A stretch of DNA of 64,000 nt from Candidatus Doudnabacteria bacterium (GTDB taxonomy: Bacteria; Patescibacteriota; Doudnabacteria; UBA920). The stretch spans positions 501,646 through 565,645 of the forward strand of contig CAWINB010000001.1 of the NCBI GenBank assembly GCA_963837465.1, read 5' to 3'. Below the pieces are notes generated by a model. It was not told the origin of the DNA. It was given only the letters and a program-made list of their open reading frames with translations, and did not search any database. Positions 9,558-41,745 of the stretch are shown here, piece by piece; the stretch's first letter is position 1; each line of letters starts with the position of its first letter. A program made the translations under genes and the position numbers.

Positions 9558-9752
9558 GACTTTAACAATTTAATCAATCTAAGTAGCCTAAACCCGGCAG
9601 CAATGCCGGGCATGGCGAACAGTGAAATAAACTCTATGAAAATACTGAACCCGTCGTTCAGCTACTTTTCATAGAGTCGTATACCCGAAAGGGGCTACGG
9701 ACCCGCAAGGGTCATGCTGGCGGCGGGCTTTGTGCTATCTGCCAGCAAGAAA
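9558..9752 (+). ncRNA. conserved structured RNA leader, copy A, upstream of a PH-domain gene
   Basis: Elements in order: a GNRA-capped hairpin CCCGGCA-GCAA-TGCCGGG; CATGGCG; a covarying outer stem around the conserved ACTGAACCCGTCGTTCAGC hairpin; ATACCCGAAAGGG; a GCAA-capped hairpin; then ATGCTGGCGGCGGGCTTTGTG. The same architecture recurs at 41558 and 60488 with compensatory changes. Confidence 0.5.
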
Positions 9753-10292: not shown

Positions 10293-11138
10293 ATGTCCAC
10301 AAAAGGCCTTACCATACTGCTGCCGGACGGCGACCCCAACGGCATTAAAATCATTGAAGTCAACGGCTGGGTTGGCAAGGCCATTATTATCCCGAGGGCT
10401 AAGCTTAAGTTCATTAAAGACCGGCCGGAAAGCAATTTGCCAGCCTTGTATTTTTTGTTCGGCGAGAATATGGACGAGACCAAGCCCAGTGTTTACATTG
10501 GGGAAACTGAACTCTGTTACCAGCGGTTAACCAACCATGAAAGTAATAAGGATTTCTGGAACTTAGCCATTATTTTTATTGGCAGTTTGGATAAGGCCGA
10601 TGTCAGATACTTAGAAAATAAAGCCGTGCAGGAAGCCCACAGCTCTGGCCGCTATCTTATGACCAACGGTAACTCCCGTAACGAGAATACCTTATCGGAG
10701 TTTAAAAAATCAGCAGCTGATAGCTATTTTGAAAGTATTAAGTTTGTAATGGCGGTACTCGGTTATACACTGTTTGAACCCATAATTACCGACACCCACC
10801 ACGCTGAAGAAATCTATTACTTAAAAGCCTCTGGCGCGGAAGCCAAAGGCAGTCTTTTGGATACAGGAGAGTTTATTGTTTTTAAGGGCTCTACCGTGCG
10901 CCTGGCTGAAGTGCCGTCCATGCAGGGCACGGGTGGCTCTAAGCTTCGGCAGCTGATGAGCCGTGAGGATGACGGTAGGCTAAAGAAGATTAACGACGAG
11001 GCCTATCAACTGACCCAAGACGTGGTTTTTACCAGCCCAAGCCTGGCTGCAGATGTTATAACCGGCAGATCCAGCAACGGCTGGATTTCGTGGAAGGATA
11101 GTCAGGGCCGGACTCTGGATGAGAATAAAAGGAAATAA
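10293..11138 (+). CDS. GIY-YIG-like nuclease N-domain with DUF4357-like C-terminal domain
   Basis: LYFLFGEN...VYIGETE...RLTNH matches the GIY-(x13)-YIG-R pattern. The C-terminal NGWISWKDSQGRTLDE is a conserved tail. The protein is nearly identical to the 61201-62046 product. Confidence 0.55.
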   Translation: MSTKGLTILLPDGDPNGIKIIEVNGWVGKAIIIPRAKLKFIKDRPESNLPALYFLFGENMDETKPSVYIGETELCYQRLTNHESNKDFWNLAIIFIGSLDKADVRYLENKAVQEAHSSGRYLMTNGNSRNENTLSEFKKSAADSYFESIKFVMAVLGYTLFEPIITDTHHAEEIYYLKASGAEAKGSLLDTGEFIVFKGSTVRLAEVPSMQGTGGSKLRQLMSREDDGRLKKINDEAYQLTQDVVFTSPSLAADVITGRSSNGWISWKDSQGRTLDENKRK

Positions 11139-12474: not shown

Positions 12475-13017
12475 ATGGATGAACCCAATGACATTGTTAT
12501 GCTTCCCAACCCGGAAGGTAGTGGTAACTATTCCAGCTCCGCTGACATGAAGCAGGATAAGCAAAAAGAGTTGATGGTCGAGCAGCTCAAGAAAACGCCA
12601 ATCGTGCAGGTGGCATGCGAAAAATTAGGAATTGGCCGGAGTTCCTACTACAGGTGGCGGCAAGAGGATAAAAAATTTGAGAAAGATTGTGACGACGCGA
12701 TTAAAGAAGGTCGAAACTTGGTAAATGACGTTGCCGTATCGCAGCTGTTAAGCGCCATAAGAACCGGCAATATGACGGCAATAATGTTTTGGTTAAAACA
12801 TTTTGACGAAAACTTTAAAACCAAAATTGAAATTTCGGGATCAGTCAAGCAGGTACGTGAGGAGCTTACCGAAGAAGAGATGGCTCTTTTTCTTGAGTCC
12901 TTAAAACTTGCCGGCTTTTCCGAAAAGCAAATTAATATTAATTCTAATAAGGAGACAAACGACAATGATCAACCTAGAGAAACTTCCGTTCCTGATCGAC
13001 CCGATCAGGAAAAGTAG
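12475..13017 (+). CDS. terminase small-subunit-like HTH protein (copy 2)
   Basis: GRSSYYRWRQEDKKF HTH signature. Paralogous to the 6879 and 57785 products. Confidence 0.55.
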   Translation: MDEPNDIVMLPNPEGSGNYSSSADMKQDKQKELMVEQLKKTPIVQVACEKLGIGRSSYYRWRQEDKKFEKDCDDAIKEGRNLVNDVAVSQLLSAIRTGNMTAIMFWLKHFDENFKTKIEISGSVKQVREELTEEEMALFLESLKLAGFSEKQININSNKETNDNDQPRETSVPDRPDQEK

Positions 13018-14443
13018 GCTGCTTAGGCGCAAGTTCGCCAAGCGCAGTCACCCTATGTTTTTTCTGCTGTACTTAGCCAAATATATGACTAAGCCCACAG
13101 CAGAGTTTCAGCGTGAAATTTTCACGCTCACCGAAGACAAGAAACTGGACTTTCTTGTCTTAACCGCCTTTCGCGGTTCTGCTAAGTCCACAATCTGCAA
13201 TACCTCACTGGCTATCTGGTCAGTAGTTAGCGGCCGGGCTAACAACATTATTATTGCCAGCCAGACCAGACAGCAAGCCAGACAACATCTAGCGAATATT
13301 AAAAAGGAATTAGAAACTAATGATTTACTCCGCAATGACCTCGGTCCGTTCGAGGAAGAATCGGACGAATGGGGTGCATTCGCGATTACCTTTAAGGATT
13401 ACGATGCCCGCATTATGGCCGTTTCCACCGAACAGGCCATCCGTGGTATGCGCTACAAACAATATCGACCCGAAATAATAATATTGGATGATATTGAAGA
13501 CGTTAATTCTACCAGAACCAGAGAAGCCCGAGAGAAAATATACAACTGGTTTACTTCGGAAATTGTGCCATTGGGAACGCCGGATACCAGAATTATTGTC
13601 CTTGGTAACTTTGTTCACGAATATTCTTTAGTAGGCAGACTGATGGCGGAAATTCAAAGCGGCCAGCGACTTGGTATGTTTAAGCGTTACCCGTTAATTA
13701 ATGACGAAGGTTTGTGCATTTGGCCGGGAATGTATCCGAATGATGCGGCCATTGAAGCCTTTAGGAAAAAAGTTGGCGATGAGGCAACTTGGGAGCGGGA
13801 GTACAAACTTAATATTATAGCTGCCGGAGAAAAGCTAATTCCACTGGAATGGATTAAGTTTTACGAAGAGTTGCCTTCAAGGAAAAAATCGCGCGATTAC
13901 TCTTATACTTCTTGTGCAGTAGACTTAGCAATTGGCGAGAATGAAACCAATGACTGTACGGCTATCGTTTGCGGGCAAGTCCACCGCCCAGACGGCAACC
14001 TGAAAGTTTATATTCTAGCCAATCCCACCAACGCGCGTCTAAATTTTCCTAAAGCCATAGAAGCCATGAAAAATACCCTAAACGTTTTAGGCGAACAAGG
14101 CCGCACCAAAATGTTTATTGAAACCGTAGGTTTTCAAGAAGCCTATTACCAATATATGTTTGAAAACGGTTACAGACAAGTTGAGGGCGTTAAAGTTACA
14201 ACAGATAAACGCACCAGACTTGCGCTTACAACCAAACTGATTAAAGAGGGCGTAATCGTGTTTGCTAAAACTGGTTGCGATGAACTTATCCAGCAATTAG
14301 TTGGCTTCGGCAAAGAGCATCACGACGATTTAGCCGACGCGTTCAGCATGTTAATTATGCAAATCATGAAAGAGCATGAGGAAGGAGCTGGTTTTAGGGC
14401 TTGGCTAAAATTCTGCGAACGGAACGGCGGACCGTGGCTATAA
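12965..14443 (+). CDS. terminase large-subunit-like protein (copy 2, no C-terminal extension)
   Basis: Start placed at MINLEK by alignment to MMLENSG of copy 1. AFRGSAKST, IIILDDIED, and about 75% identity to copy 1 over the core. Confidence 0.7.
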   Translation: MINLEKLPFLIDPIRKSRLLRRKFAKRSHPMFFLLYLAKYMTKPTAEFQREIFTLTEDKKLDFLVLTAFRGSAKSTICNTSLAIWSVVSGRANNIIIASQTRQQARQHLANIKKELETNDLLRNDLGPFEEESDEWGAFAITFKDYDARIMAVSTEQAIRGMRYKQYRPEIIILDDIEDVNSTRTREAREKIYNWFTSEIVPLGTPDTRIIVLGNFVHEYSLVGRLMAEIQSGQRLGMFKRYPLINDEGLCIWPGMYPNDAAIEAFRKKVGDEATWEREYKLNIIAAGEKLIPLEWIKFYEELPSRKKSRDYSYTSCAVDLAIGENETNDCTAIVCGQVHRPDGNLKVYILANPTNARLNFPKAIEAMKNTLNVLGEQGRTKMFIETVGFQEAYYQYMFENGYRQVEGVKVTTDKRTRLALTTKLIKEGVIVFAKTGCDELIQQLVGFGKEHHDDLADAFSMLIMQIMKEHEEGAGFRAWLKFCERNGGPWL

Positions 14444-14470: not shown

Positions 14471-14505
14471 TAAAACGCCGAATTTATTCCAGCGTTTTAT
14501 TAATA
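14471..14505 (+). terminator. intrinsic terminator after TerL-like copy 2
   Basis: AAAACGC-(13 nt)-GCGTTTT stem followed by ATTAATAA. Confidence 0.5.
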
Positions 14506-14678
14506 ACTATATTTCCTTTTTGGAAAAAACTAAATTTAACTTTCTCCAACAAGGAGGCAAGGGAAGGATGTGCAGTCCTCCCTTGCCAGCTTGAGTGCGT
14601 AAACTTTTATTTTTGTAGGTCGAGTTTGTGGCTCTCGACCTGTTTGAATTCCGCTGCCACAAAGCGGTTGCCCTTTTA

Positions 14679-15284
14679 TTAGGGTTTGCTGAGCTCGGCA
14701 ACATCTTCTGGATCATTGCCGTTGAACTGGAAGTCCTGTGCCCAGCATTGGCGATGAAGTTCGGTAATGGGGCCAAATATCAGCCCGTCTTCCCGAATTA
14801 ATATCTCTATCGCCGTCTCGAGCGTGTGCCGCTCCTGCCCATACTGGTGCATAGCGGCATATTCGCGGACTGTGGGATGGCCGCCTTGACCTAAGGGCAC
14901 AGCACCGATAAGTGCCATAACCCCTCGAGCAAAAGCGCTGCGCTTGTAAGTTGATGCTCGTGGCATCCGCTCCAGCGCAATCCTATGCAGCTCTCCCCAC
15001 TGTGACGTGGGGAAAACAAACACCAGATGCTGCCACTCTCCGGTCTCCGGATCCTGACCTTCTATGTCAGTCAAGACATCGAACTTCTCAATTATCTTGA
15101 CCTCGACCAGTTCCCCGGATATAAGCCCGAAAACCTCGTGGGGATTGAATTCATCATCCCATGCCCCTTGAACGAAATATCGGGCTCCGCACTCACACTC
15201 GTAAGTGATATTATAGTCTGCCGGAATCTCCAGCTTACGCTGACAGAACTGACAGACTATTTCTGGTAAGTTCGCCCTGTCCAC
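14679..15284 (-). CDS. zinc-ribbon domain protein, hypothetical (last gene of the higher-GC cluster)
   Basis: N-terminal CQFCQRK...YECECGARY Cys4 ribbon. It shares the high GC content of the genes upstream of it. Confidence 0.45.
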   Translation of the reverse strand: MDRANLPEIVCQFCQRKLEIPADYNITYECECGARYFVQGAWDDEFNPHEVFGLISGELVEVKIIEKFDVLTDIEGQDPETGEWQHLVFVFPTSQWGELHRIALERMPRASTYKRSAFARGVMALIGAVPLGQGGHPTVREYAAMHQYGQERHTLETAIEILIREDGLIFGPITELHRQCWAQDFQFNGNDPEDVAELSKP

Positions 15285-15343
15285 TTTTATTCTTCCTTTC
15301 TTGCGCTGGTTGCGCTCCTAGGGTGAAAGGGATTGGAGATAAA

Positions 15344-17230
15344 CTACTGCGCGGCTTTGAGCGCGACAAGAGCGACAGCGGTTGGATTATTCCACGACCC
15401 GACTGTGAAGACCTCGTCACACAACTCCACCGCATACTTCGGATTTCCAGAAGCCGAAACGATGCCTACCACCTTCACATTTTTATCGTGGGCGATGGCA
15501 TACACCGACGGTGCCGGAAAACCACTATCCAAGAAATCCCCGAACACCATTATGGTAGTATTCGGCAGGGCCTGGCGGATAGCCAGTTCAAGCCCTCGAG
15601 CATAGGAAGTACCAAAACCCGGCTGCAGCATAAGAATGCCGTCAATAACGACATCTACATCTGACTCCGGAGTCGGAACAACCACAGCTGGATGATCAGC
15701 GAACACCGTCAACCCAAAGGTTGCGCCCTTGGGTCCGTAGTAAAGAGCAGTGGCTTGTGCCGCAGCCATTGCTGACTGCATCCTGCCCTCGTGCCCCATA
15801 GAACCGCTCGTGTCAAACACGAACAGCAGGTTTGGAGCGTCGGTGCTCACGCGCTTTTGGCGAATTTCGGCGAGGTCGTCAACCGCGCCGCCACTTGCCA
15901 AGGCTTCCTCCATTGTCCGAAGCTCGTCTAACGGAGCTTCAAAGTGGAGACCGCGAAGCAAGTCTACCTGCTCGCCAGCACGGCTCATTGTCTGCGCCCC
16001 GTCTTCCACCTCGTCAAATTGTGAGATAGCTTTAAGAGCGCTTAAATGAGATATGCCTTTGAGCAATCGGTATTCAGGTCCGCCGCGAACTCGATGCTGG
16101 GGAGGGATGGTTGTCCACCGCTCCAACAACTCGATTCGCTTTTCGCCGCTAAGTCCGCGCAAGAGTGGCATCATCTTCACCAACTCCTGTGGGATATCCG
16201 CCGAAATACTTAGCTCGGGCATTCCGTCGCCCTTGCCACCTAAGGCACCGCCGCTAGTCGCCGCACCCGTTTCCGGACTCGGAGAATCTAACTGCACTGC
16301 CTGTTTGATGACTTCGGGTTTCTCGGATTGCACTATTGCCTTTTGACCTCGGACCTTAGCTTCAAAGCTGCCGTCCAGAGCCTTCAGGTCAAACCGTGCC
16401 TGCCCTTGGCTGTTGGCGAGTTCCTGCGAAATTTCACCTGCGGTCTTAATTCCATCCGCAGTCAGAAATTCCTTTGTTGGATCAGAACCAAGTAACTTGG
16501 CTAAGCTCGTGGTGTTAACCACGGCTTTGCCTTGTCCCGGCTCTTTCGCAGGATTTTGCTTTTGCCCTTGCGAGGAAGATTGAGACGAGGTTGAACCTTC
16601 AGCCTGATTTTGGTCTTGATCAGCTTGCGCCGAACTTTGACCTTTACCAGACTTAGGCTGTCTTCTCGACTCCCGGCGAAGACTGGCACAAAAAGATTCT
16701 GTGCTAAAATCAGTATCGCCATTTTCTCCCGAACCACTTTGCGTCGATGGTTTTCCAGGCTTGCCCGACTGTGAAGTGGGTTTGCCTTGGGAATCAGACT
16801 GGGACTGTTTGTCGCCCCCACCTTTCTCGGATGAAGGCTGTGGCTGTCCCGAATCTGAAATCTGACTCTCTACTTCTGCTTGCGCATAGGCTGAATCAGA
16901 CTTTTCATCTTTTTGGTCGCTGCTGTTTGCCTCCGAAGGTTCGCCGGAATTTTCCTGCTGGTTTTCGCCTTCTCCTTGTTCAGGATTAGTTTCATCCGCA
17001 GGATTATCTTCCGATTCCTCTGAAGACTCTCCGTCCGGGCTTTGTGAGCCTGGGGGTGAATCATCATCCGGCGTTGCTCCTCCGGAGGCTGCTAAGGGCG
17101 GTTGGATGTTCCTCCGAACACCTCGTGAAGGATCTTCGTGATCCAAGTGTCGGCAGTTTCTCCGTTCATCGTAACGTCGGGCGTAATTTCCACCCGCCCA
17201 CGATACACACGGCAACCGACGCTGATGCAA
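15344..17230 (-). CDS. von Willebrand factor A (vWA) domain protein with long acidic/Ser/Gln-rich low-complexity N-region
   Basis: MIDAS motif LLFVFDTSGSMG. The N-terminal 138 nt overlap the upstream AAA+ gene, and the true start is uncertain. Confidence 0.7.
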   Translation of the reverse strand: MHQRRLPCVSWAGGNYARRYDERRNCRHLDHEDPSRGVRRNIQPPLAASGGATPDDDSPPGSQSPDGESSEESEDNPADETNPEQGEGENQQENSGEPSEANSSDQKDEKSDSAYAQAEVESQISDSGQPQPSSEKGGGDKQSQSDSQGKPTSQSGKPGKPSTQSGSGENGDTDFSTESFCASLRRESRRQPKSGKGQSSAQADQDQNQAEGSTSSQSSSQGQKQNPAKEPGQGKAVVNTTSLAKLLGSDPTKEFLTADGIKTAGEISQELANSQGQARFDLKALDGSFEAKVRGQKAIVQSEKPEVIKQAVQLDSPSPETGAATSGGALGGKGDGMPELSISADIPQELVKMMPLLRGLSGEKRIELLERWTTIPPQHRVRGGPEYRLLKGISHLSALKAISQFDEVEDGAQTMSRAGEQVDLLRGLHFEAPLDELRTMEEALASGGAVDDLAEIRQKRVSTDAPNLLFVFDTSGSMGHEGRMQSAMAAAQATALYYGPKGATFGLTVFADHPAVVVPTPESDVDVVIDGILMLQPGFGTSYARGLELAIRQALPNTTIMVFGDFLDSGFPAPSVYAIAHDKNVKVVGIVSASGNPKYAVELCDEVFTVGSWNNPTAVALVALKAAQ

Positions 17231-18267
17231 GTGTCCGGCGTGATGACTTCACTCCCCGAAAGGAGCGAATACACAGCCGACTCCTGCAACAAATCGATAT
17301 AAGAACGGGGGCCGGCAACTACCTTAAACTTTCCGGAGAAATCCGTAAAGTTAGGCAATTGCGTTTGCGTGAGCTTCGTCACCGTGGCGCAGCCACGGAT
17401 AATTTGCTCGTCTATATTGAGCAGCCCGCCGAGACCTTTCTCGGCAACGAAACTACGAACGGCCAAAAGGTCGGCCGGGTCGCAATGCGTGACGGACGGT
17501 AAAGTCCGTTTTGCACCGCTGCCAATTCGGCGGAGAACTTCCACGTCTTCGTCGATTGGGAGAAATCCCAGCTCGACAACCGACGTGAATCTGTCCTTTA
17601 CCGAAATCGGAATGGGTTGAGCACTCGGATCATACTTCTTGGTGTTAGCCGTAGCGAACAACGTAAAGTTGAGATCCTTCGTGCCAACACCTTCCACGGA
17701 CACCTGCTGTTCCTCCATGATTTGAAGGAGACCGAATTGTGCCCTTGCAGGCACTTTATCAATCTCATCAAAGTGGAAGAATCCAGGCATTCCTGTTACC
17801 GTGTCTGCGAGGAATGACCGGACGGTTTGAAGTGCGTTTACAAACTGCAAACGTCCTTCGCCATCGTATTCCGACTTCCGCCGAGAAAGAAATTCCTCGG
17901 GCGTCAAGTCGGAACGTCCCTGCACGCGGTCGTAAACCACGTGCCCACCGTTCATTGCGCCCACAAGCTTTGACGCACCCTTCATCAGGGTGGTCTTTGC
18001 GAGGCCCGGGGCGGAGAACACCAACAGGTGTCCCTTAAGCCCGAGAGCCCGACGGAACAGTGCGCAGACCAACGAGTCTTTCAACTCGCTGTAGCCCACA
18101 ACAATCTCGTCCAGTCCCGACCGCAAGGATCGGAACGAATCAACAACGTTCAGTAACTGTTTCATCTTTTTTCCTTTTTGCCCCGACTGCCTACCCAGCC
18201 GGAGCCAATTGAATTTGGTATACCGGCGGGTGTAGGCCCGCCAAAAGCAGAAAGGAACCCCGAACAT
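17092..18267 (-). CDS. MoxR-like AAA+ ATPase
   Basis: Walker A-like SAPGLAKTTLMK and Walker B FFHFDEIDK. It is paired with the downstream vWA gene. Confidence 0.7.
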   Translation of the reverse strand: MFGVPFCFWRAYTRRYTKFNWLRLGRQSGQKGKKMKQLLNVVDSFRSLRSGLDEIVVGYSELKDSLVCALFRRALGLKGHLLVFSAPGLAKTTLMKGASKLVGAMNGGHVVYDRVQGRSDLTPEEFLSRRKSEYDGEGRLQFVNALQTVRSFLADTVTGMPGFFHFDEIDKVPARAQFGLLQIMEEQQVSVEGVGTKDLNFTLFATANTKKYDPSAQPIPISVKDRFTSVVELGFLPIDEDVEVLRRIGSGAKRTLPSVTHCDPADLLAVRSFVAEKGLGGLLNIDEQIIRGCATVTKLTQTQLPNFTDFSGKFKVVAGPRSYIDLLQESAVYSLLSGSEVITPDTCISVGCRVYRGRVEITPDVTMNGETADTWITKILHEVFGGTSNRP

Positions 18268-18432
18268 AGGGGAAACTCACATATTATTTTTTACATAATA
18301 CACGAGTTAAACCAAATATTCAGTTGTCAAAGATCAATCTTGAGTGTTTCAACCCAAGCGCCAGGCGGCTCCTGTTAGGGCAACAGGGCTTTGTTCCCCC
18401 GGTGTCCACCTGGCGTTTAAGTTGAATAAGTC

Positions 18433-18478
18433 GGTCGGGAGAATAAAAGATTGTGCAAATCTTTTATTCTCCCACTCC
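18433..18478. other. perfect 16-bp inverted repeat within the intergenic region of the operon
   Basis: GGGAGAATAAAAGATT-gtgcaa-ATCTTTTATTCTCCC. No U-tract follows on either strand. Confidence 0.5.
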
Positions 18479-18581
18479 GAGTGCTAAACACCGAGATTCA
18501 CGCCTTGCTCGGTTTGGCGACAGGGTTCATGCCTTCTCCTCTATGGCGATCGGTTTTAAATAAAACCGGCAAAATTTTCTT

Positions 18582-18962
18582 TTAGTTTTTCACCTCCTGT
18601 TTTAACCGCTTGCGGAGTTGGGAAGCCAACTGGGCTTCTTGTTTCTTTAAAGCGGTTATAAACTCCCGACGGACATCGTGTCCGTCCGCCGCCGAAACCT
18701 GTTTGCGTTGTTTGAGACAACGTAACAGTTCGGTCAAGCGGTAAGCTTCTTCCGGCGTATCGGGGCCGGAAGCAACGAGCCGAACATCAGCGGCGAACTT
18801 TTCGGGCAACGTCACATAGAACGTAACGTTGCCGAGAGTGATGGCGGTTTTACCCTCGATGCTGACTTCAGAACCGGAGCTTTGCCCCGACTCTTCCATC
18901 ATATCGATTGGCTCGTCGCCATACTCTTCAGATAGAAGGTTTTGCCAATTGAAACTAGACAT
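18582..18962 (-). CDS. hypothetical protein
   Basis: 126-aa ORF whose start overlaps the helicase stop by 8 nt. No recognisable motif. Confidence 0.4.
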   Translation of the reverse strand: MSSFNWQNLLSEEYGDEPIDMMEESGQSSGSEVSIEGKTAITLGNVTFYVTLPEKFAADVRLVASGPDTPEEAYRLTELLRCLKQRKQVSAADGHDVRREFITALKKQEAQLASQLRKRLKQEVKN

Positions 18963-21081
18963 GGCTCACCTCCTGCGAAAGAGCAGACTCGGCAATCCGC
19001 CGGAATCGAGCCTCGGTGACACCGAGGACTCCGGCGACTTTGCCGCAGGTCCCGTTGGGCGGGAAGCCCGTTTGGGACCAGAGCGATTTAGCGATACAAC
19101 GGAGACTGGCGTCGTCAAACACCAACTCACTGTTTTCGCCTTCCTCGCTGATCGGCTTTGCGGCGCCGAATGTCGGGCCGCAGTTGCGGATGATGCGTTT
19201 GACCGCACTGCGCGGAAGGACGGAAGCCAGCTTTGCAGCCAGTTCCACCTGTCCGAACAGGAAACGATCAGCAACATCAGATTTGAATTGCCGCTGGAAT
19301 TCGTCGCTTGCGTTGTTGAAACGCAAGAACGAAAACGTAAGTTCCAGCAGTCGCGAGACGTAATCAACGAGCTCGCGAACAGCCCACGGCACTTTAACCG
19401 TGTAGGCTGTCATACCGAACGTGATCACTTGATCAACGATTTCGGGATCCATCTGCGCCTTATCCCGAAGGACATAGTTGGCGCAGACTTCGGTCAACCG
19501 CCGCACCCAGGTTTCGTATTCGGCGTTCTCGGAGCGACAAAGCTCCTCAATTGCCTTATACTCATCCGGATGCATTCCGAGCCGAGCCAGTCGTTGGCCT
19601 CGGTCGGTGAGCACGATCATCTTGCCGACGGGCATCGCGAATTGCTCCGCGATGAGCCGACGAATGATGCGCTCGAACTGCTCCACGAGTGGCTGGGTTT
19701 CAGCCAGCGTAGAGCCGAAGTAGGTTTGCCGGAGAAACCCAACGAGTTTCTGCGCCGACGTGTAACCGAGCTGCATAAGCCCGGCAACGTGCGACGTAAG
19801 AAAATACTCGTTGTAAAGGCGGCTTTCGATTTTGGAAGCCTTCTGTTTGAGCAGAGACTCCTGAATCTCAACCACCTCAATCTCTGAAGTTGCTACCACC
19901 CAGCCGTAGCCGATGGTATCAAACTGCGGACGGCCTGCTCGACCGAGAGCCTGCCAGAAACGGCTTGCAGAAATGAGCTGACGCTCACCGCCGCCTTCCG
20001 GTTCCTGATGGATGCTCTCGATGATGACGTGCCGGGCAGGGAGGTTAACTCCCTGAACCAAGGTCTCGCAGCACACCACGATTGGAAGTTTTCCAGCCAA
20101 CGCAAGCTCAAATACAAGCTCACGCTCTTGCTGGGAACATCCGCCGTGATGTAGACCGACACCTTTTGGCAACGTAGCCTTAAGTGTGGTCGTAAAGTCG
20201 CCTGCCTCGTTAGGCAAGGACTTCGCCGAAGTTTCCAGTTCGCTATTGCCGTAACCCAGCCTCTCGGCTAAGTGTTCGGCAATTTTTCTCGCCCGCTCCC
20301 GATAAGGAGTGTAGACGAGAATTGGAGACTGGTCGTCGTTGTCGCGGATGTAATCCACAACTTCGGCAACCCGCGCTTCCGTGTTGGCGAATCCGGACAA
20401 TTGGCGGTTAGCGAGACCCTTGTTACCCTCGGTAAAAGCGACGTTGGTAATTTCGTCTCCGTAGTCATTGACATCGGAATCGAAATGCACCACACGAGTC
20501 ACCAAGGGAACCGGACGAACGTCCGACTTGACCACCGCGGCGTTGAGCCAGGCGGCCAATTTCGGTTCGTCCTGTTCGTGAATGGTGGCGGAAAGCCCGA
20601 CGATTCGGACTTTCGGGTAGAGCTGACGCAATTTGGTAATGATCAGCTCGGTTTCCGGATCGAGATTGTGAATCTCATCCAGAACCACCATTGGGCAGTG
20701 ATGCCCGAAGTTGGGGTCGTTGTGGAGGATGACGCCGAGTTTCCACGGCGTTAGAACCCTCATCTGCGATGAACGGAAGCTGCCGATTGAGAGGGAATAA
20801 TCTTTATTTCCCACTCTCACGTTAGCCTCCGGAAACCGCTGACGGAGCCAGTCGGCCTTTTCAAAACACAAGGCACGAGTCGGCTCTACTACCACGCCCT
20901 TACCGGCGATTTCCAAGCCGGTGAATCCGGACTCGGTCTTGCCAGCGCCAGTCGGGGCGATAACTAGGATGTTTCGGTTGGTATCGCGCAACAGGTTTTC
21001 GGCCTGTTGCTGATACTCGTAGAGAGTGATGTTGGGTGTCATACTACTGCACCTCCTCGAGGGTTTTGAGACCCTCGCCAT
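18955..21081 (-). CDS. SF2 DExH-box helicase (Hel308/Ski2-like)
   Basis: Walker A APTGAGKTE, DEIH box (VVLDEIHNLD), SAT-like motif, and motif VI QALGRAGRP. Confidence 0.8.
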   Translation of the reverse strand: MARVSKPSRRCSSMTPNITLYEYQQQAENLLRDTNRNILVIAPTGAGKTESGFTGLEIAGKGVVVEPTRALCFEKADWLRQRFPEANVRVGNKDYSLSIGSFRSSQMRVLTPWKLGVILHNDPNFGHHCPMVVLDEIHNLDPETELIITKLRQLYPKVRIVGLSATIHEQDEPKLAAWLNAAVVKSDVRPVPLVTRVVHFDSDVNDYGDEITNVAFTEGNKGLANRQLSGFANTEARVAEVVDYIRDNDDQSPILVYTPYRERARKIAEHLAERLGYGNSELETSAKSLPNEAGDFTTTLKATLPKGVGLHHGGCSQQERELVFELALAGKLPIVVCCETLVQGVNLPARHVIIESIHQEPEGGGERQLISASRFWQALGRAGRPQFDTIGYGWVVATSEIEVVEIQESLLKQKASKIESRLYNEYFLTSHVAGLMQLGYTSAQKLVGFLRQTYFGSTLAETQPLVEQFERIIRRLIAEQFAMPVGKMIVLTDRGQRLARLGMHPDEYKAIEELCRSENAEYETWVRRLTEVCANYVLRDKAQMDPEIVDQVITFGMTAYTVKVPWAVRELVDYVSRLLELTFSFLRFNNASDEFQRQFKSDVADRFLFGQVELAAKLASVLPRSAVKRIIRNCGPTFGAAKPISEEGENSELVFDDASLRCIAKSLWSQTGFPPNGTCGKVAGVLGVTEARFRRIAESALSQEVSHV

Positions 21082-21823
21082 TCAGCACTCTCTGCGGCCC
21101 GCCAGCCTGAACCACCTCGCCTGGGAGAACATCCCGGAGGTTGATGAATTCAAACGAGCGAGCGTTGCCATTGTTTCCAATGGTGCGCCGAATGTGCTCG
21201 GCGCGAGCAAACGAAGAGACGCGGTCTTTCCGGCGGTCGTAGACCGTGATGCGATTGGCGATATCAATCGCCACCGCACCGGTCACCTCCCGTTCGGGAA
21301 GACTGCCGAGCATCACCACGACGTTGCCGCTGAACAGGACTTTATCTTGCTGTCCTTCCCAGCGAATATCGTAGCGGCTACCCGGCGTTGCAATCCACCA
21401 TACCCCGTTTTCATTCACCCCCTCAATTTTGGCGATAAACGCCGGTTGGGGGTTAATGATGGGCTCGGCTCCTTTCGGGCCGATGGTGAACCGCAGCTCT
21501 CCCTTCAGGTCTTTGACTTCGCCCGCGTCATGCGGGTAAAGACGAACCATCAGGTTGTCGCGCGACCGGCACTTCTTGCCGGTTCCGGCGTCGATGAAAT
21601 CGACGGCGGCCTCACTCTCCGCATGTAGCCGGTAAACTTCACCGGCCAAGGGGCGCTGACGATCGCGAATTTTCAGCTTTGACGGGAACATTCCCGCATC
21701 GCCGCTAATCGCAAACGTCGTCAGCTTCAGAACGTCCCCTGCCTTCATGTGCTGCGGGGGACACAAGCGGAGAGATTGAATCAGCTCCGCGGAAATCGTG
21801 ACAAAGGCTGTGTAGCGAGCCAT
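21044..21823 (-). CDS. hypothetical protein overlapping the helicase start, possible nuclease partner (HamA-like?)
   Basis: AAGGAG RBS 6 nt before the ATG. A possible PD-(D/E)xK arrangement (VDFID ... GEVKD). It overlaps the helicase gene by 38 nt. Confidence 0.4.
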   Translation of the reverse strand: MARYTAFVTISAELIQSLRLCPPQHMKAGDVLKLTTFAISGDAGMFPSKLKIRDRQRPLAGEVYRLHAESEAAVDFIDAGTGKKCRSRDNLMVRLYPHDAGEVKDLKGELRFTIGPKGAEPIINPQPAFIAKIEGVNENGVWWIATPGSRYDIRWEGQQDKVLFSGNVVVMLGSLPEREVTGAVAIDIANRITVYDRRKDRVSSFARAEHIRRTIGNNGNARSFEFINLRDVLPGEVVQAGGPQRVLNGEGLKTLEEVQ

Positions 21824-21843
21824 GACAACTCCTTACCCGAAAT

Positions 21844-21972
21844 TCAGACCCTCGGGACCGGGGGAAAGTAAGCCAATACTACGCCACCTTCGGCATTGAA
21901 CACTAGCCGGGGCGGATTATTTTTGAGCTGTTCCAAGGCGGCTTCAAAAGCCGTCTCGTCTTTCTCTTTCAT
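21844..21972 (-). CDS. possible small ORF (42 aa)
   Basis: Hand-translated MKEKDETAFEAALEQLKNNPPRLVFNAEGGVVLAYFPPVPRV, with an AGAGGTG RBS. Weak evidence. Confidence 0.2.
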   Translation of the reverse strand: MKEKDETAFEAALEQLKNNPPRLVFNAEGGVVLAYFPPVPRV

Positions 21973-22027
21973 GACACCTCTTGTCCGATATTTCCATTTG
22001 AACCGTCGGACTGCGGGTCAATGCCCT

Positions 22028-22942
22028 TTACTTTCCCTTTTGGGGATCGTATTGGACAAGCCTGCCTTCGGGAATTTTTACGCGGTCTTTATTGTTAACA
22101 TTGACCACGAAAAACCCCCGCTTCCTAGACTTGAAAGCTGTTTCGGGTGTTATCCCAAACAGGTCTGCCAAGGCCTTCCCGGGCTTTCCTTTTTCTTCTT
22201 CCGTCAGATATACAACCCCAACGGCAGTAAGTAGGCCAGAAGCTTTAAAGTCAGGATGAAACCACCCCAACCTCTTAGCTCTCCAAGCGGCACTGCGAGA
22301 AATGTTGTAGCCTTTCGACTTCAACTGCTCCCACAGTGGATCTAGGGAAAGTTGCCGTTCGGCTTCGGTTAGGATTATCCGACCTGCTTCATCAGCAGGT
22401 TTGGATTTGCCAGCCATAAGCCGTTTTAGGCCACGAGCCATATTGATCCGTTTGGTCTGGTTAGGATCGGTTCTCTCCTGAAAAGGAAAAATCTCCGGGT
22501 CTTCCCCAACCATTTCGCGACAGGCCGCAACCATAGACTTTATTTGCGTCAGGAGTGCCGTAAAGGCAACATCCTTTTCTTCCGCAAGCTCAGCCACAGT
22601 TGATCCGGTTAGCCATTCAAGAAAGAGCTTATAGGCATCTTCCCCAAAGGCTTCCTGGACTATTATGGCGACCAGCGACCAAAGTTCTTCAATAATCGCG
22701 ATCCTTTCGGGATTGCGAAAATCAGGAACATACTTGGCCTCGATGTCAGTAGGTCGCATATCATCAGCACCCGGCAGGGCGGAGAATTGCTTCTCACCCC
22801 ACAAAGCACCGACCCTATCCAACCGGTCTTCCAGCTGCTGGTCTTGGTAAAGAGCAGTGATTTCATCACTCCTCTTTTTCTGTTCGGCCAAAAGTTGCTT
22901 GCGTTGTTGGCGCAAGGTTTCTTTAACGTTTTGCAGCGTCAT
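22028..22942 (-). CDS. hypothetical protein, first gene of the higher-GC minus-strand cluster
   Basis: 304-aa ORF with the same elevated GC as the genes downstream of it. No recognisable catalytic motif. Confidence 0.45.
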   Translation of the reverse strand: MTLQNVKETLRQQRKQLLAEQKKRSDEITALYQDQQLEDRLDRVGALWGEKQFSALPGADDMRPTDIEAKYVPDFRNPERIAIIEELWSLVAIIVQEAFGEDAYKLFLEWLTGSTVAELAEEKDVAFTALLTQIKSMVAACREMVGEDPEIFPFQERTDPNQTKRINMARGLKRLMAGKSKPADEAGRIILTEAERQLSLDPLWEQLKSKGYNISRSAAWRAKRLGWFHPDFKASGLLTAVGVVYLTEEEKGKPGKALADLFGITPETAFKSRKRGFFVVNVNNKDRVKIPEGRLVQYDPQKGK

Positions 22943-24271
22943 TTTCTATCCTCCTTTCTTGAGCGTCAGGTTCTAAGACCTTAGTGCCCTGGAGGATGTG
23001 GACTCCACTATATATAGAGGCCATATCCTCCAAAGCATCGCTAAGAAAGAAGTTTGCACTATTGATTCTTTTTTTAAAGAACAAAATTTGGCAAAATAAA
23101 AACCCTGAAAAAGCTTCAGGGCTTAAATATTATTGCCAAACTTCAGACCACAATTATTTTATGGCCTAAAGAGTAGGGGCGAGAAAGTTGAGTAGACTTC
23201 TCGCCCGATTTGCACCGGGCTAAGTTTTTAGACTTGCTTCAGTGCGAGTGAGTGTAAGTTGGTTTCAATCCCTTCTAACGAGGACCTTATCTATGGCTCT
23301 GACTAACTAACATCAGAGTTGCAATTAAAACCATTGCTGCCAGCAAAGCAGCTCCTTGAAAGAATTAGGAATGATTCCAAAAAACTTCTTTCAAGATTGA
23401 GAACAAGAGAGTTTCAATCACTCGTCCGTCCGAAGACGGACTTGCCGTCTTCTCACCCAAAGGTGAGGACCGACCCCGAATGGGGCATTGATTGAGCTTA
23501 CTCTGCTGGCAGCGTGGTGGTTTTGTGATTTTGACTTAAACTTGCATCCCTGTAAATGGACAGTTTAGACTTTCACCAAACCACAACGCTGACAACAAAG
23601 ATCTTATTAGCTATTATCCCTCTTTAAAATTTAAATGAACTTTACGATAGTTCTCACTATGCCCTGTAAATATAGCAAGGACTGTTCCCCGCGTTTTCTA
23701 GAAATTTGGCCAATCGGACAGGTATCTTGGTTTTTGATATCTGATGATTTAATTGACCAACATTTTTTTGAAAATGCAGGGTGCACTCATTGCTAGGTAT
23801 CGGCAAGCGGCCAGAGGCGTCCCTCCTGTAAGGGACACCACTAAGCACTTTAATAACTTAACCGGCTTTAGCGGAAAGTCGCTCTTCCCAAATATTTCTA
23901 CTTGAGACGGGGATGTCTTTGGGGTTATTCACTCCCATCGCTATCCTTTAAGCAAGACTTTGTGATGTAAAGAACTAACTCTCCTCTGCACCGTCCCTTG
24001 CGGGACAGTGGTTTAATGGAGAGGAGACTGAAGGGGATGTTCCCGGTAAACTTCTATGGGCAAAGTTTATAAGGCTTCCCTTCATTCCTCTCTCCGTTAG
24101 CTATTTATTTGTTAAGGTGCTTTGCTTGGTTTTTTATGTTGACTAAACAGTATATACCTAAATACTCAAAGCGTCAATACTATGCTGATAGTAATATAGC
24201 CCATTTATGATTATGCCTATAAATAAATACCTATTTTTGGCTTATTTTCATATATAAGTGTCAGAATAGAC

Positions 24272-24300
24272 TTGACAACATTCTAAAAAGGGTATATAAT
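24272..24300 (+). promoter_or_regulatory. consensus sigma70 promoter
   Basis: TTGACA, a 17-nt spacer, then TATAAT, ending 24 nt before the 24325 ATG. Confidence 0.55.
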
Positions 24301-24324
24301 ACTAATATAATTAACATTATTACT

Positions 24325-25134
24325 ATGGAAATCCCAAATATCGCCAAATACTTAGAAATCTTTGAAAAATTAGGCCTAAATAAGAACGAGGCCCAAATTT
24401 ACGAGCTTTTGCTTAACTCCGGCCCATTAGGCGTAAAACCCATTCTTTTTAGAACAAAGCTAAAAAGAGGGAACGCTTACTATCATTTAGATAGCCTAAA
24501 AGCTAAAGGGTTAGTGGAAACTCAGACAGAGCGTGGTAAAACCATATTTATTGCCAAACACCCCGAACAGCTAGAGCTGCTTTTGGCACAACAAAAAGCC
24601 GCCTTAGCGGCGGCGGAAGAAGATCTGCATAAAACCTTGCCTGGCTTACGGAGTATGTTTCAACTAGCCACTACTAAACCGGGGGTAAAGTTCTTTGAGG
24701 GCAAGGACGGGATTATCCAAATTTACGAAACCTTGCTGGCACAAAGCCAAAGTATTGATAGTATAGAAGACAAAGGGGAGATGGTTGGTTTTTTTGCCGA
24801 TTATGTTAAGGAGTTTATTGCCAAGCGCATTAAGCAAAAAATCTTTAACCGGGTTATCGCGCCTTCTGCCAGCCCCATTAATGTAAGTTCGCCAAAGGAA
24901 TATAGGGAAGCTAGGTTGTTGCCAGCGGGGCAATTTCCTTTCCGCATGGATATTAAAATTGTCGGTAACTTGGTTTCTTTAATCTCTTTTCAAAAAGATA
25001 ACCCTGTAGGTATATTAATTGAAAATAAGGAAATCGCAGAAAACTACAAAATGCTTTTTGAATTGTTGTGGAAATTTCTTGAGCCGAAGACTGGGTTAAG
25101 AACCACGCCTGCTCAAACCTCAAGCGGCCAATAA
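24325..25134 (+). CDS. TrmB-family transcriptional regulator
   Basis: N-terminal TrmB wHTH (LGLNKNEAQIYELLLNSGPLGVKPI) and a C-terminal TrmB-like sensor region. Confidence 0.65.
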   Translation: MEIPNIAKYLEIFEKLGLNKNEAQIYELLLNSGPLGVKPILFRTKLKRGNAYYHLDSLKAKGLVETQTERGKTIFIAKHPEQLELLLAQQKAALAAAEEDLHKTLPGLRSMFQLATTKPGVKFFEGKDGIIQIYETLLAQSQSIDSIEDKGEMVGFFADYVKEFIAKRIKQKIFNRVIAPSASPINVSSPKEYREARLLPAGQFPFRMDIKIVGNLVSLISFQKDNPVGILIENKEIAENYKMLFELLWKFLEPKTGLRTTPAQTSSGQ

Positions 25135-28122: not shown

Positions 28123-28258
28123 AAAGATATTATAACTTATTTTGGCTATAAATTAAATAGAAAACTAGGGCTTTTCCCTAGCTTTCAGGGGTCTAGACAA
28201 GGCACGTGGGTTGCGTCATCAATGTGTTGTAAGCCTTAATCATAGAAAGGAGCAACAT

Positions 28259-29644
28259 ATGCAAGAACTAACGACAAGCCCGGCGGTGGGTTTGGCTAAC
28301 CAAATTGCAGCGCCACCCCCAGGAGTTAAATACTGCCTTTATGCAAGGAAGTCCAGCGAGGACGACGAACGGCAAGCTTTAAGTATAGACAGTCAGATTA
28401 AAGAGATGCTGGCGGCCGCAGAGCGGGATGGATTGAACATAGCGGAAGTCAGGAAAGAAAGTCATTCGGCCAAAGCCTCAGGTTGCAGGCCGGTATACAA
28501 TCAACTAATAAATGAAATCAGAGCAGGATTTTTTAACGGCATCCTAACCTGGGCACCAGACAGGCTAAGTAGAAACGCTGGGGACTTGGGAGCCATAGTA
28601 GACTTGATGGACCAAGGGTTGCTTAAGGAAATCCGGACACACGGCCAAAGATTTTCCAACTCGCCGAATGAAAAGTTTTTATTAATGATTTTGTGTAGCC
28701 AAGCCAAACTTGAGAACGACAACCGCGGCATCAACGTAAAACGCGGACAACGGAGTAAGCTGGAGATGGGTCACCGTCCATGCCTGGCACCTCTTGGGTA
28801 CCTCAACGAAAAACTAACGACCAGAGGTGAAAGTAAAATACTTATAAATGCCGAACGAGCCCCAATCATAACAGAAATGTTTAATAAGGTAGCTTTTAAA
28901 CACTACACAGGGCGGGACTTATTTGAATGGATAAATGAGGAAACAAATTTTATCACAAGGGCAGGCAAGAAAATAGCTTTAAGTGTAATTTATCGGGTGC
29001 TGCAAAATTCATTTTACTATGGCAAGTTTGAATGGCCGGTCGGATCTGGCAAGTGGTATGACGGAAAACATAAACCGTTGATAACCAAAGAGCTGTTCGA
29101 CAAAGTCAGGGAAAATTTAACGATAGCGCCAAAGTCCAGGCCGGGAACAAAAGAGTTTAATTTTACCAAGCTCATGCGCTGCGGATCTTGTGGATCGGGC
29201 ATAACAGCCGAGGAAAAATTTAAAAAGCTGAGTGATGAGACAGTCAATAGGTATGTTTACTATAAATGTACAAAGTTTGCCAACCATGAGTGTGACGAGC
29301 CGTCAATTCGAGAGGAGGAGCTGACGACCCAGCTACTGGACTTAATGGACAAGATCGACCTAGACGAGCTGGGAGCCAGGAAAAAAGTGCAGGAGGAAAT
29401 TGAGAAGTATAAGAGGTTCAGCCAAGGGGTTTTCGGAAAAATGTTGACTCAGGAATACCACGTGCCGCAGGTTGACGTGAAGAATTATGCAAAATTTGTA
29501 CTGCAAAATGGAACGAGGGATGAAAAGCGCGACTTGCTGGCTTGCCTAAAATCCAAGATATTTTTAAAGAAACAGAAAATTTATATCGACAAAAAGCGAG
29601 CTAAGGAAACCGGTAGCGGAGAGATGGGAATCGAACCGAGTTAA
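28259..29644 (+). CDS. large serine recombinase (resolvase/invertase N-domain, recombinase domain, zinc ribbon)
   Basis: Start placed at MQEL after an AAAGGAG RBS. Catalytic YARKSSEDDERQALSIDSQ, a recombinase domain and a CGSCGSG...C ribbon. Confidence 0.85.
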   Translation: MQELTTSPAVGLANQIAAPPPGVKYCLYARKSSEDDERQALSIDSQIKEMLAAAERDGLNIAEVRKESHSAKASGCRPVYNQLINEIRAGFFNGILTWAPDRLSRNAGDLGAIVDLMDQGLLKEIRTHGQRFSNSPNEKFLLMILCSQAKLENDNRGINVKRGQRSKLEMGHRPCLAPLGYLNEKLTTRGESKILINAERAPIITEMFNKVAFKHYTGRDLFEWINEETNFITRAGKKIALSVIYRVLQNSFYYGKFEWPVGSGKWYDGKHKPLITKELFDKVRENLTIAPKSRPGTKEFNFTKLMRCGSCGSGITAEEKFKKLSDETVNRYVYYKCTKFANHECDEPSIREEELTTQLLDLMDKIDLDELGARKKVQEEIEKYKRFSQGVFGKMLTQEYHVPQVDVKNYAKFVLQNGTRDEKRDLLACLKSKIFLKKQKIYIDKKRAKETGSGEMGIEPS

Positions 29645-37118: not shown

Positions 37119-37130
37119 TAAGTAAGTTAA

Positions 37131-39398: not shown

Positions 39399-39399
39399 A

Positions 39400-41557: not shown

Positions 41558-41745
41558 AATAACAATTTAGCCTAAACCACGGGCAACCGCGGCATGGCAT
41601 TAACCAAGACTCATCCTAGGTACTGAACCCCGCGTTCAGCGCTCTAGGATGAGCCATACCCGAAAGGGTGTGGGCCGTAAGGCCAGCTGGCGCGGGGCTT
41701 TGTGATTATATACACAATATTCCTACGTCGGCAGAAAGAAAAAGC
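41558..41745 (+). ncRNA. conserved structured RNA leader, copy B
   Basis: TGgTATAAT extended -10 lies immediately upstream. The architecture matches copy A, with compensatory substitutions in the outer stem (CTCATCCTAG/CTAGGATGAG) and in the distal hairpin (GGCCGTAAGGCC). Confidence 0.5.

Follow-up and report, generated by a model that had tools for sequence, protein, structure and literature searches.

When the reading frame of a MoxR-class AAA+ ATPase runs directly into that of a protein with a vWA domain, are the two proteins made by two neighbouring genes or by one? The question is raised by a locus in a 64,000-nt stretch of DNA (hereafter the window) from Candidatus Doudnabacteria bacterium (GCA_963837465.1, contig CAWINB010000001.1, positions 501,646-565,645 of the forward strand). 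A sequence-only reading of the window had described an ATPase gene and a vWA gene that overlap by 138 nt, are followed by a gene for a Cys4 zinc-ribbon protein, share an operon with a pair of helicase genes and together might form an NTPase-vWA conflict module. Comparison with related loci leads us to a different gene structure: the two open reading frames (ORFs) are probably a single gene, which programmed -1 ribosomal frameshifting would express as a 357-aa ATPase and a 940-aa fusion of ATPase and vWA protein (Table 1).

A rare MoxR-class ATPase and its vWA partner

The domains named in the sequence-only reading were recovered in full. The ATPase matches Pfam AAA_3 (6.6e-11, 42.6 bits against a cut-off of 27) and AAA_5 (2e-6), and its only sequence match in the PDB is the MoxR protein 2r44 (9e-10). 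Walker A (SAPGLAKT), Walker B (FFHFDEID, read earlier as FDEIDK) and a sensor-2-like GPR motif (AGPRSY) are kept in the homologue alignment, and we take GxPGxAK[ST], hhhhDE and this GPR motif to be the set that defines MoxR proteins; the first Gly of Walker A is Ser in the window's clade and Gly in the fused relatives described below. The Mg_chelatase, BchI and BchD models of Pfam and NCBIfam gave no match to it at E<=0.1, and the ATPase is of the MoxR class, not of the ChlI/BchI family. Its mechanical ORF (18267..17092, minus strand) spans 391 aa, but the true start is ATG 18165 (MKQLL...), preceded by AAAGGAAAAAAG, and not 18267, because the homologues are 357-373 aa long.

The mechanical vWA ORF (17230..15344, minus strand; 628 aa) matches Pfam VWA_2 (4.3e-9, 37.4 bits against a cut-off of 27) and VWA_CoxE (3.6e-7). 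The vWA domain's MIDAS, an adhesion site that depends on a metal ion, is intact, with DTSGS, GTS and GDF invariant in the family alignment, and the protein ends with this domain, with no C-terminal extension. The long acidic Ser/Gln-rich tract noted earlier is also present, as about 190 aa of low complexity (S 21%, Q 13%, G 12%, E 11%, D 8%) ahead of the conserved part. An AlphaFold2 (AF2) model of the middle and vWA regions, with a predicted local distance difference test (pLDDT) of 76 and a predicted template modelling score (pTM) of 0.72, has its best fold match in NorD of the NorQD complex, and also matches integrin-type vWA domains and the MIDAS domains of Rea1/MDN1. TIGR02442, a cobaltochelatase subunit family, matches the vWA domain weakly (1.2e-4, 20.6 bits against a cut-off of 779).

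Among 5.8 billion proteins searched, 14 close homologues of the ATPase were found (67-91% identity, 357-373 aa), of which the nearest relative comes from a Candidatus Kuenenbacteria metagenome-assembled genome (MAG; GCA_012798565.1); beyond these, the next matches are generic annotated MoxR ATPases at ~26% identity. With a profile made from the ATPase alignment, 16 proteins fell below 1e-30 among 1.84 billion representatives. The family thus counts some 15-20 sequences among billions and is patchily distributed, being carried by one species-representative genome and three metagenome contigs. Close relatives were also sought in phage and plasmid collections, where only generic MoxR proteins at 25-29% identity were found. 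DNA was retrieved for 13 related loci (given L numbers below), and the junction was compared in 12 loci with split ATPase and vWA ORFs, the window included, which fall into two clades (main clade, n=11). L013, from a metagenome scan, encodes an ordinary Bat-operon-type MoxR protein with separate ATG-started genes and served as an outgroup only.

The vWA frame lacks a start of its own

Relative to the ATPase, the vWA ORF occupies the -1 frame in each of the 12 split loci. This frame is open from the ATPase stop through the vWA domain, for 575-662 codons where it is complete, and holds not a single stop in the first 300 nt past the junction in any of the 12. Its conservation at the protein level starts at the ATPase stop, with P-[LS]-x-A-S and then acidic residues. 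Setting the window aside, the other 11 loci have their last upstream stop codon of the vWA frame 18-108 nt before the ATPase stop, and past this stop codon the frame has no ATG, GTG or TTG until +315 to +501 nt in nine loci, until a GTG at +102 in L020, and none at all before the contig ends in L019. The window has in-frame TTGs only at -138, -123 and -54, all of them inside the ATPase ORF, and then no canonical start until a GTG at +570. In two loci, L007 and L014, the -1 frame can be entered only within GCG/GGG GAC CCU CGG UAG.

These ORFs could be read as two ordinary overlapping genes, with the vWA protein translated from TTG 17230, from TTG 17146 (the 600-aa NCBI/Logan annotation) or from an internal start, and its acidic 5' part either translated from such a start or left untranslated. 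The three upstream TTGs of the window would allow this, gene callers have given such models, and the characterised MoxR-vWA pairs (NorQD, CbbQO, RavA-ViaA) are separate proteins (PMC13036017). The related loci nevertheless make this arrangement unlikely. The 138-nt overlap described earlier belongs to a mechanical ORF of the window only, since orthologues have stops in that upstream stretch, and past it the frame remains start-less for 105-167 codons in every orthologue but L020, even though protein conservation starts at the ATPase stop. The starts chosen by gene callers are inconsistent (+315 to +501, for products of 345-614 aa) and discard conserved open frame; they are arbitrary because the vWA frame has no start near its conserved 5' end. 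Moreover, relatives exist in which the two proteins are fused in frame.

A proposed slippery site at the ATPase stop

At the point where the two frames meet, a slippery sequence stands in phase, 0-1 codon before the 0-frame stop, in 12/12 loci. Its letters differ among loci (Table 1), and half of the sites (6/12) fit X_XXY_YYZ perfectly, in three versions of the heptamer, A_AAC_CCU, A_AAU_UUU and C_CCU_UUC. The ATPase P0009 of locus L018, which ends in ...ENFQ, is the sole one whose C-terminus lacks the conserved Pro, and its DNA has A_AAU_UUU replacing C_CCU at that place.

The surroundings of the site are also partly conserved. In 11/12 loci a GGAGG, GGGAG, GAGGG, GGUGG or GGGG ends 6-12 nt upstream of the heptamer, although a Gly-rich linker favours GGN codons anyway; judged from its sequence, the Shine-Dalgarno (SD)-like GGAGG of the window is a possible frameshift stimulator of the dnaX type. 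Downstream, a GCCUC is invariant in 11/11 main-clade loci, including at the synonymous position of its Ala codon, which is always GCC, against a share of 30% for GCC among all Ala codons of these ORFs. As a side observation, GCCUC could pair with the upstream GGAGG(C) in many loci.

The stop codon coincides with the onset of -1-frame conservation in all loci, which would also suit a ribosome that terminates at UAG and reinitiates at a non-canonical -1-frame codon, making a separate vWA protein from near ..LAAS.. and thus a partner like those of the known MoxR systems. We think this quite unlikely: a ribosome at the stop would have no ATG, GTG or TTG within reach, no CTG, ATT, ATC or ATA was seen there by eye in the junction sequences, and natural fusions join the proteins at the same residue. 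Furthermore, the element that is conserved is the slippery heptamer, whose variants A_AAU_UUU and C_CCU_UUC are sensible for slippage only. Two other routes into the vWA frame were rejected, transcriptional slippage because the junction has no homopolymer longer than 4 nt, and stop-codon readthrough because the vWA domain lies in a different frame.

Natural fusions join the two proteins in frame

In three relatives from the 16 proteins of the profile search, P0046 (948 aa), P0049 (950 aa) and P0048 (at least 1037 aa, N-terminally cut), AAA_3, an acidic Ser/Gln/Glu/Asp tract, the middle region and VWA_2 follow one another in one frame, and a fourth, P0045 (705 aa), is an in-frame relative that is cut off past the linker. 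P0049 is 43% identical to the window's ATPase (9e-87), and P0046 is 39% identical to its linker and vWA ORF (2e-107). The P0046 gene lies in the same cassette as its split counterparts, where genes for a helicase (48% identical) and for a 133-aa protein precede it, and its junction reads ...CGC CCT TTT GAG CAA... (R-P-F-E-Q) in frame where L020 has CGC CCU UUC UGA. A slip at CCU in the window, followed by UUA GCA GCC..., would yield a fusion of 940 aa, the same size as the natural ones, with the predicted junction peptide ...GGTSNRPLAASGG... and the predicted tryptic junction peptide ...SNRPLAASGGATPDDD....

The existence of fused relatives could also be taken to mean that the window holds a fused gene broken by a 1-nt indel, either as a pseudogene or through an assembly error. 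The same frame relation recurs, however, in 12 assemblies from different samples at 50-90% identity, with the stop precisely placed, the slippery sites varied yet functional-looking and both ORFs intact throughout, and such breakage is hardly credible.

The -1 relation in 12/12 loci, the start-less vWA ORF, the slippery sites and the in-frame fusions therefore make -1 frameshifting the simplest reading, and we consider it probable that the ATPase and vWA ORFs are one gene with two products. Several points weigh against this conclusion. Downstream of the site, neither a hairpin nor a pseudoknot proved to be conserved (z-scores of -0.3 to -1.7, and one of +0.12). Three of the sites, the window's included, are not full tandem heptamers and would require slippage of a single tRNA in the P site at the stop. 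The purine-rich acidic tract by itself keeps stop and start codons rare, and the 12 loci are related and hence not independent samples, though the heptamer sequence varies among them. The characterised MoxR-vWA pairs, as separate proteins, count on the same side.

How the two products might work together

In the frameshifting model, most ribosomes would terminate at the UAG and release the 357-aa ATPase. Some would slip one base back on C_CCU as their tRNA-Pro moves its pairing from CCU to CCC, probably aided by the slowly read stop codon in the A site and by the upstream SD-like GGAGG, and these would go on to produce the 940-aa ATPase-linker-vWA protein. By analogy with MoxR/vWA pairs, NorQD, ChlI/ChlD and midasin, the short product would form a hexameric motor, and one or a few long subunits would enter the ring through their ATPase module, leaving the MIDAS domain tethered by the flexible acidic linker. 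The MIDAS domain might then grip an acidic residue of a client, which ATP hydrolysis would remodel or release, and the proportion of ring to adaptor would depend on how often ribosomes shift frame. Judged by synteny alone, the likeliest client would be the co-conserved group around a Ski2/Hel308-like helicase (the 259-aa protein, the helicase and the 126-aa protein). We attach low confidence to this last step.

Table 1. Positions of the features discussed in the text, in window coordinates, and forms of the junction in the split loci.
Feature	Position	Strand	Remarks
MoxR-class AAA+ ATPase, 0-frame ORF	17092..18165	-	357 aa; UAG stop 17094-17092
-1 frame ORF	15344..17095	-	583 codons + stop; translation
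Acidic Ser/Gln/Gly linker	~16526-17095	-	within the -1 frame ORF
Conserved middle region and vWA/MIDAS domain	15347-16531	-	VWA_2, VWA_CoxE
Proposed -1 slippery site C_CGC_CCU	17095..17101	-	UAG directly after; position kept in 12 loci
SD-like GGAGG	17111..17115	-	9 nt upstream of heptamer
GCCUC	17085..17089	-	starts 5 nt past slippery codon; Ala-Ser in -1 frame
Junction C_CGC_CCU UAG	17101-17092		window, L019
Junction G_CGC_CCU UAG			L011
Junction A_AAC_CCU UAA/UAG			L015, L017
Junction A_AAC_CCU CAG UAG			L004, L016
Junction G_GAC_CCU CGN UAG			L002, L007, L014
Junction A_AAU_UUU CAG UAG			L018
Junction C_CCU_UUC UGA			L020 (distant clade, 51% identity, GC 0.61)
201-aa Cys4 zinc-ribbon-like ORF	14679..15284	-	CxxC-x15-CxC; GTG start, AAGGAAG ribosome-binding site
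126-aa conserved protein	18582..18962	-	start overlaps helicase stop by 8 nt
Ski2/Hel308-like superfamily-2 helicase	18955..21081	-	708-aa ORF; likely start ATG 21042, 695 aa
259-aa protein	21044..21823	-	abuts helicase gene; 11 homologues, no Pfam match
304-aa protein, first cassette gene	22028..22942	-	'..TA..AK.RGWF..' helix-turn-helix-like repeats
Conserved non-coding leader, 1.38 kb	22943..24324	-	85% nt identity with L019; nhmmer matches in L007, L014
Three-hairpin RNA motif, ~85 nt	23408-23492	-	ends in GUGAUUGAAAC
TrmB-family regulator	24325..25134	+	Pfam TrmB 2e-12; divergent from cassette
1000-aa protein beside TrmB	25120-28122	-	no Pfam, PADLOC or PDB match
Large serine recombinases	28211-29644, 46496-48277		
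GmrSD-like HEC-05, Type III restriction enzyme and methyltransferase, PDC-S14	35415-40815 and 10293-11138		HEC-05 5.9e-135; PDC-S14 2.3e-87
Three paralogous terminase-large-subunit-like genes	7341-9413, 12908-14443, 58209-59738		two match Terminase_6C; first similar by eye, N-terminal half
Diversity-generating retroelement (DGR) AAA_5 protein	48515-51172		885 aa; variable repeat 51048-51159 at 3' end
DGR template repeat	51412-51523		every mismatch to variable repeat at a template adenine
DGR reverse transcriptase	51847-52902		
Transglutaminase+vWA protein	52915-55491		after DGR reverse transcriptase
LOOT RNA motif (RF03000), 4 copies	9585-9713, 41569-41684, 55679-55809, 60508-60628	+, +, -, +	49.5-70 bits

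A helicase cassette of constant order

Wherever the contig reaches far enough, the ATPase-vWA gene ends a cassette of fixed order: a helix-turn-helix (HTH)-repeat protein of ~300-530 aa, a protein of ~255 aa, a helicase of ~700 aa, a protein of ~105-155 aa, a gap, the ATPase and the vWA ORF. We thereby define a rare six-gene helicase cassette, 8.4 kb long in the window, which also has a conserved structured RNA (below) and occurs mainly on metagenome contigs and in the one Candidatus Kuenenbacteria MAG. The operon with a helicase pair that the sequence-only reading had proposed holds in so far as these genes lie on the same strand and are always syntenic, the helicase accompanying the ATPase gene in 13/13 loci that reach that far, window included (the contig of L018 stops short). 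The pair itself, however, is one helicase gene with the gene of the 259-aa protein ahead of it, and a spacer of 314-416 nt, with a hairpin and promoter-like sites, separates the helicase genes from the ATPase gene, which leaves a single operon no more than possible.

The helicase matches DEAD (5e-20) and Helicase_C, PRK02362 of NCBIfam (2.5e-55) and HamB of PADLOC (1.4e-23), and in the PDB it matches ASCC3 (3e-46) and also Slh1, Hel308 and Brr2. The small proteins around it are less easily placed. The 126-aa protein stands 3' of the helicase in 11 loci (the window and 10 others) and had no match in Pfam or, by profile, against PDB sequences. The 259-aa protein is mostly beta; residues 1-157, at a pLDDT of 80-90, are the only good part of its AF2 model, which had no significant Foldseek match in the PDB or BFVD, and matches of 35-40 residues to the beta-arm of HU/IHF were too weak and were not used. 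Profile searches with the 259-aa family and with the zinc-ribbon protein against PDB sequences found nothing, the matches to SAKe being designed-repeat artefacts. The first cassette protein, present in most loci, has 1-3 copies of '..G(I/V)(T/S)..TA..AK(K/R)RGWF..', their number varying by locus; by eye this motif is HTH-like, and the protein, which had no family match, may bind DNA. Across PADLOC, PHROGs and NCBIfam, neither the ATPase and vWA ORFs nor the zinc-ribbon, 126-, 259- and 304-aa proteins had matches beyond generic domains.

In the spacer between helicase and ATPase, a perfect 16-bp hairpin and promoter-like sites are found. The hairpin lies at 18437-18473, downstream of a mini-ORF of 10 codons (MNPVAKPSKA; 18498-18530, minus strand) that follows AGGAGAAGG and is kept in L019 and L014 with mostly synonymous changes. 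Mini-ORF and hairpin may act as a leader peptide or attenuator of the ATPase-vWA gene.

At the other end, 3' of the vWA ORF, the window does hold the Cys4 protein of the sequence-only reading, with CxxC-x15-CxC, but it is not a conserved member of a module. A domain search of the 201-aa and 126-aa proteins, which that reading had suggested, gave no family match, the 201-aa ORF having been compared with Pfam, PADLOC, PHROGs, NCBIfam and the PDB. The co-occurrence analysis also suggested there found the ATPase, the vWA ORF, the helicase and the ~126- and ~259-aa proteins constant, but not the zinc-ribbon protein, whose residues 105-200 match a 232-aa protein of L007 alone (a C-terminal domain of ~95 aa, 47-48% identity). 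The gene after the vWA ORF is Cas6-like (PF10040) in L004 and L016 and unrelated elsewhere. To judge from these comparisons, the zinc-ribbon gene is a variable accessory and not a core part.

The neighbours beyond the cassette vary as well. A TrmB regulator and a domainless protein of 1000-1255 aa lie divergently upstream in four loci (the window, L004, L007 and L016); near residue 660 the window's 1000-aa protein has LLEIGPGSG, which by eye resembles a motif of S-adenosylmethionine-dependent methyltransferases. Flanking genes in other loci include HicAB, MazE and a nucleotidyltransferase, and one locus is flanked by ordinary chromosomal genes (S20, holA, murI and a Mur ligase). G+C content over window positions 14500-23000 is 0.50-0.556, against 0.40-0.45 in the flanks, which suggests that the cassette was acquired from a different genome.

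A conserved leader with a possible RNA

Upstream of the first cassette gene lies the conserved non-coding leader of Table 1. Within it, a promoter-like site (24177-24149) and, further along, a terminator-like hairpin (23124-23100) may delimit an RNA of ~1 kb. Further copies of its three-hairpin motif occur in L007 (2706-2786 and 2890-2958), L014 (1985-2056) and L015 (1925-2020). The single strands are conserved, as ..UCGGUCYU.., ..GACGGCRA.. and ..GUGAYUGAAAC, and the stems differ among copies yet remain paired. No Rfam family corresponds to the motif, and its pattern was unmatched in viral contigs. At its 3' end the motif is similar to the AUUGAAAC handle found in type I/III CRISPR repeats. 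Since two loci have a Cas6-like gene 3' of the vWA gene, the cassette may be linked to Cas6-type RNA processing.

Defence and mobile-element surroundings

The window is rich in genes of defence and mobile elements (Table 1). DUF3800 and further DNA methyltransferase genes were seen near the listed defence genes, and the cassette itself lies between a serine recombinase gene (28211-29644) and terminase-like genes. Judged by this gene content, several integrated elements seem to be pieced together in the window. Two of the LOOT RNA copies stand downstream of terminase-like genes, the one at 9585 by 172 nt and the one at 60508 by 770 nt. The second, DGR-linked AAA_5 and vWA pair that the sequence-only reading had pointed out is confirmed, in that an AAA_5 protein and a transglutaminase+vWA protein flank a reverse transcriptase.

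A role of the cassette in defence or in the life of mobile elements is plausible because the cassette is rare, has a G+C content above that of its flanks and keeps variable toxin-antitoxin, Cas6-like and restriction neighbours; we would hold such a role with low confidence. Against it, the cassette has no recognisable effector, no PADLOC match for the ATPase, vWA and accessory proteins, and no close phage or plasmid relative. Going further, the whole cassette could be a new nucleic-acid-directed defence or mobile-element system of bacteria like those of the candidate phyla radiation (CPR), an idea that we put forward as speculation. Its parts would then be, again speculatively, the ~1-kb structured leader RNA with its three-hairpin motif, which ends in ..AUUGAAAC, the HTH-repeat protein, the 259-aa protein, the helicase, the 126-aa protein and the recoded MoxR-linker-vWA proteins. 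Equally conjectural is what these last would do in such a system, where a ratio set by frameshifting might yield a mini-midasin-like remodeller whose task would be to arm, load or recycle the helicase complex.

Comparison with known systems

The conflict module of the sequence-only reading recalls the published MoxR-vWA ternary systems, in which a MoxR and vWA core is the proposed regulatory switch, genes flanking it are variable, the third component is VMAP, iSTAND, an FtsH-type ATPase or a beta-propeller fused to vWA, and variable effector domains are either fused C-terminally to vWA or recruited through effector-associated domains (Kaur, Burroughs, Iyer and Aravind 2020, PMC7159879). What stands of that module is a MoxR-vWA pair in a region rich in defence genes and mobile elements; a ternary module with the zinc-ribbon protein does not. 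That the window holds a published ternary system with this protein as its variable third component would fit a MoxR and vWA pair followed by a small gene, defence-rich neighbours and the match to VWA_CoxE, a lineage thought ancestral to those systems (PMC7159879). We rate it very improbable all the same: Pfam scans of all neighbouring proteins found no VMAP, iSTAND, FtsH or beta-propeller, no effector domain follows the vWA domain, the downstream gene has no recognised effector or effector-associated domain, and the zinc-ribbon gene is missing from nearly all orthologous loci, to which the absence of PADLOC matches for the ATPase, vWA and accessory proteins may be added. The window's organism is not a multicellular bacterium, and the constant partner of its gene is a helicase. 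Hachiman also resembles the cassette, in having a helicase, HamB, to which the window's is matched, after an abutting gene of ~260 aa. It was rejected because the 259-aa protein has no match to HamA/DUF1837 and no matching fold, and Hel308, ASCC3 and Slh1 fit the helicase much better.

The NorQD complex has one vWA protein seated on a hexamer of the MoxR class, into whose pore it reaches with a finger, and the motor twists and stretches the vWA linker to act on the client (PMC13036017). NorQ/NorD, CbbQ/CbbO, CoxD/CoxE and RavA/ViaA share with the window gene the MoxR-class motor and a vWA adaptor that bears a MIDAS, but their two parts are separate proteins beside a client metallo-enzyme, and those of the window would be joined by recoding through a 190-aa acidic tether, beside a helicase. 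Could the product be a housekeeping chaperone for metal insertion or enzyme activation, of the kind of NorQD, CbbQO, CoxDE, ChlI-ChlD or CobST? NorD is the best fold match, TIGR02442 matches the vWA domain weakly (1.2e-4, as above), and both the architecture and the frameshifting have a precedent in ChlD. Other observations speak against it and leave this a most unlikely function. Of housekeeping contexts, which the sequence-only reading had named as a contrary sign, there was no trace in the form of client genes: none for nitric oxide reductase (NOR), Rubisco or CO dehydrogenase (CODH), and none for CobN/ChlH, was found in the window or in related loci; the ATPase has no Mg_chelatase, BchI or BchD match; the family is very rare, patchy and always linked to the helicase; and the G+C content of the cassette is above that of its flanks.

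The closest precedent for the gene structure is chlD of Mg- and Co-chelatases. In many bacteria and archaea, as summarised in papers citing Antonov 2020 (Mol Biol Evol 37:2268), programmed frameshifting, mostly -1, makes the small and medium subunits from one chlD gene (PMC9227772), split and unsplit chlD coexist, and the long and short products are thought to co-assemble (PMC9227772, PMC8651126). Frameshifted chlD (fs-chlD) thus resembles the window gene in giving a short AAA+ product and a long one of AAA+, acidic linker and vWA domain with MIDAS. The two differ in the ATPase, which in fs-chlD is of the ChlI/BchI Mg_chelatase family and in the window of the MoxR class (AAA_3, with a P-loop of the GxPGxAKT type); in the signals, which for fs-chlD, as the citing papers present them, are AT-rich slippery sites with downstream structures and in the window a C_CCU-type site at the stop with no structure detected; and in their context, which is tetrapyrrole synthesis for one and the helicase cassette for the other. 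Membership of the chelatases was rejected, there being no Mg_chelatase, BchI or BchD match and no CobN/ChlH large subunit among the large ORFs of the window or in related loci. We found no publication in which MoxR proteins are connected with frameshifting by the ribosome.

Two further systems bear likeness in part. Midasin (Rea1, Mdn1) has the same order of parts, an AAA+ motor, a D/E-rich region and, at the C-terminus, a MIDAS domain that binds back to the ring and draws a ligand away from a large complex, but it is a single giant eukaryotic chain of six fused AAA+ modules without recoding. Its likeness to the window gene is architectural only. In dnaX of E. coli, a slippery heptamer with an SD-like stimulator ~10 nt upstream gives two AAA+-family products in a set ratio. 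The window's junction likewise has a proposed slippery heptamer and, at similar upstream spacing, an SD-like element that may act as a stimulator, but the shifted product of dnaX is the shorter one and its downstream hairpin is essential, whereas in the window the shifted product would be the longer one and the 0-frame stop is part of the site. We propose C_CCU beside a stop, with GGAGG upstream, as a compact candidate for a bacterial frameshift signal. Pairs of this kind are prone to be mis-annotated as overlapping or truncated genes, as is the vWA protein here in its calls of 345-614 aa. The making of a motor and its adaptor from one gene by frameshifting, so far tied to chlD, would now extend to a MoxR/NorD-like lineage in an unrelated context, which suggests a general way of fixing the stoichiometry of ring to adaptor in AAA+/vWA machines.

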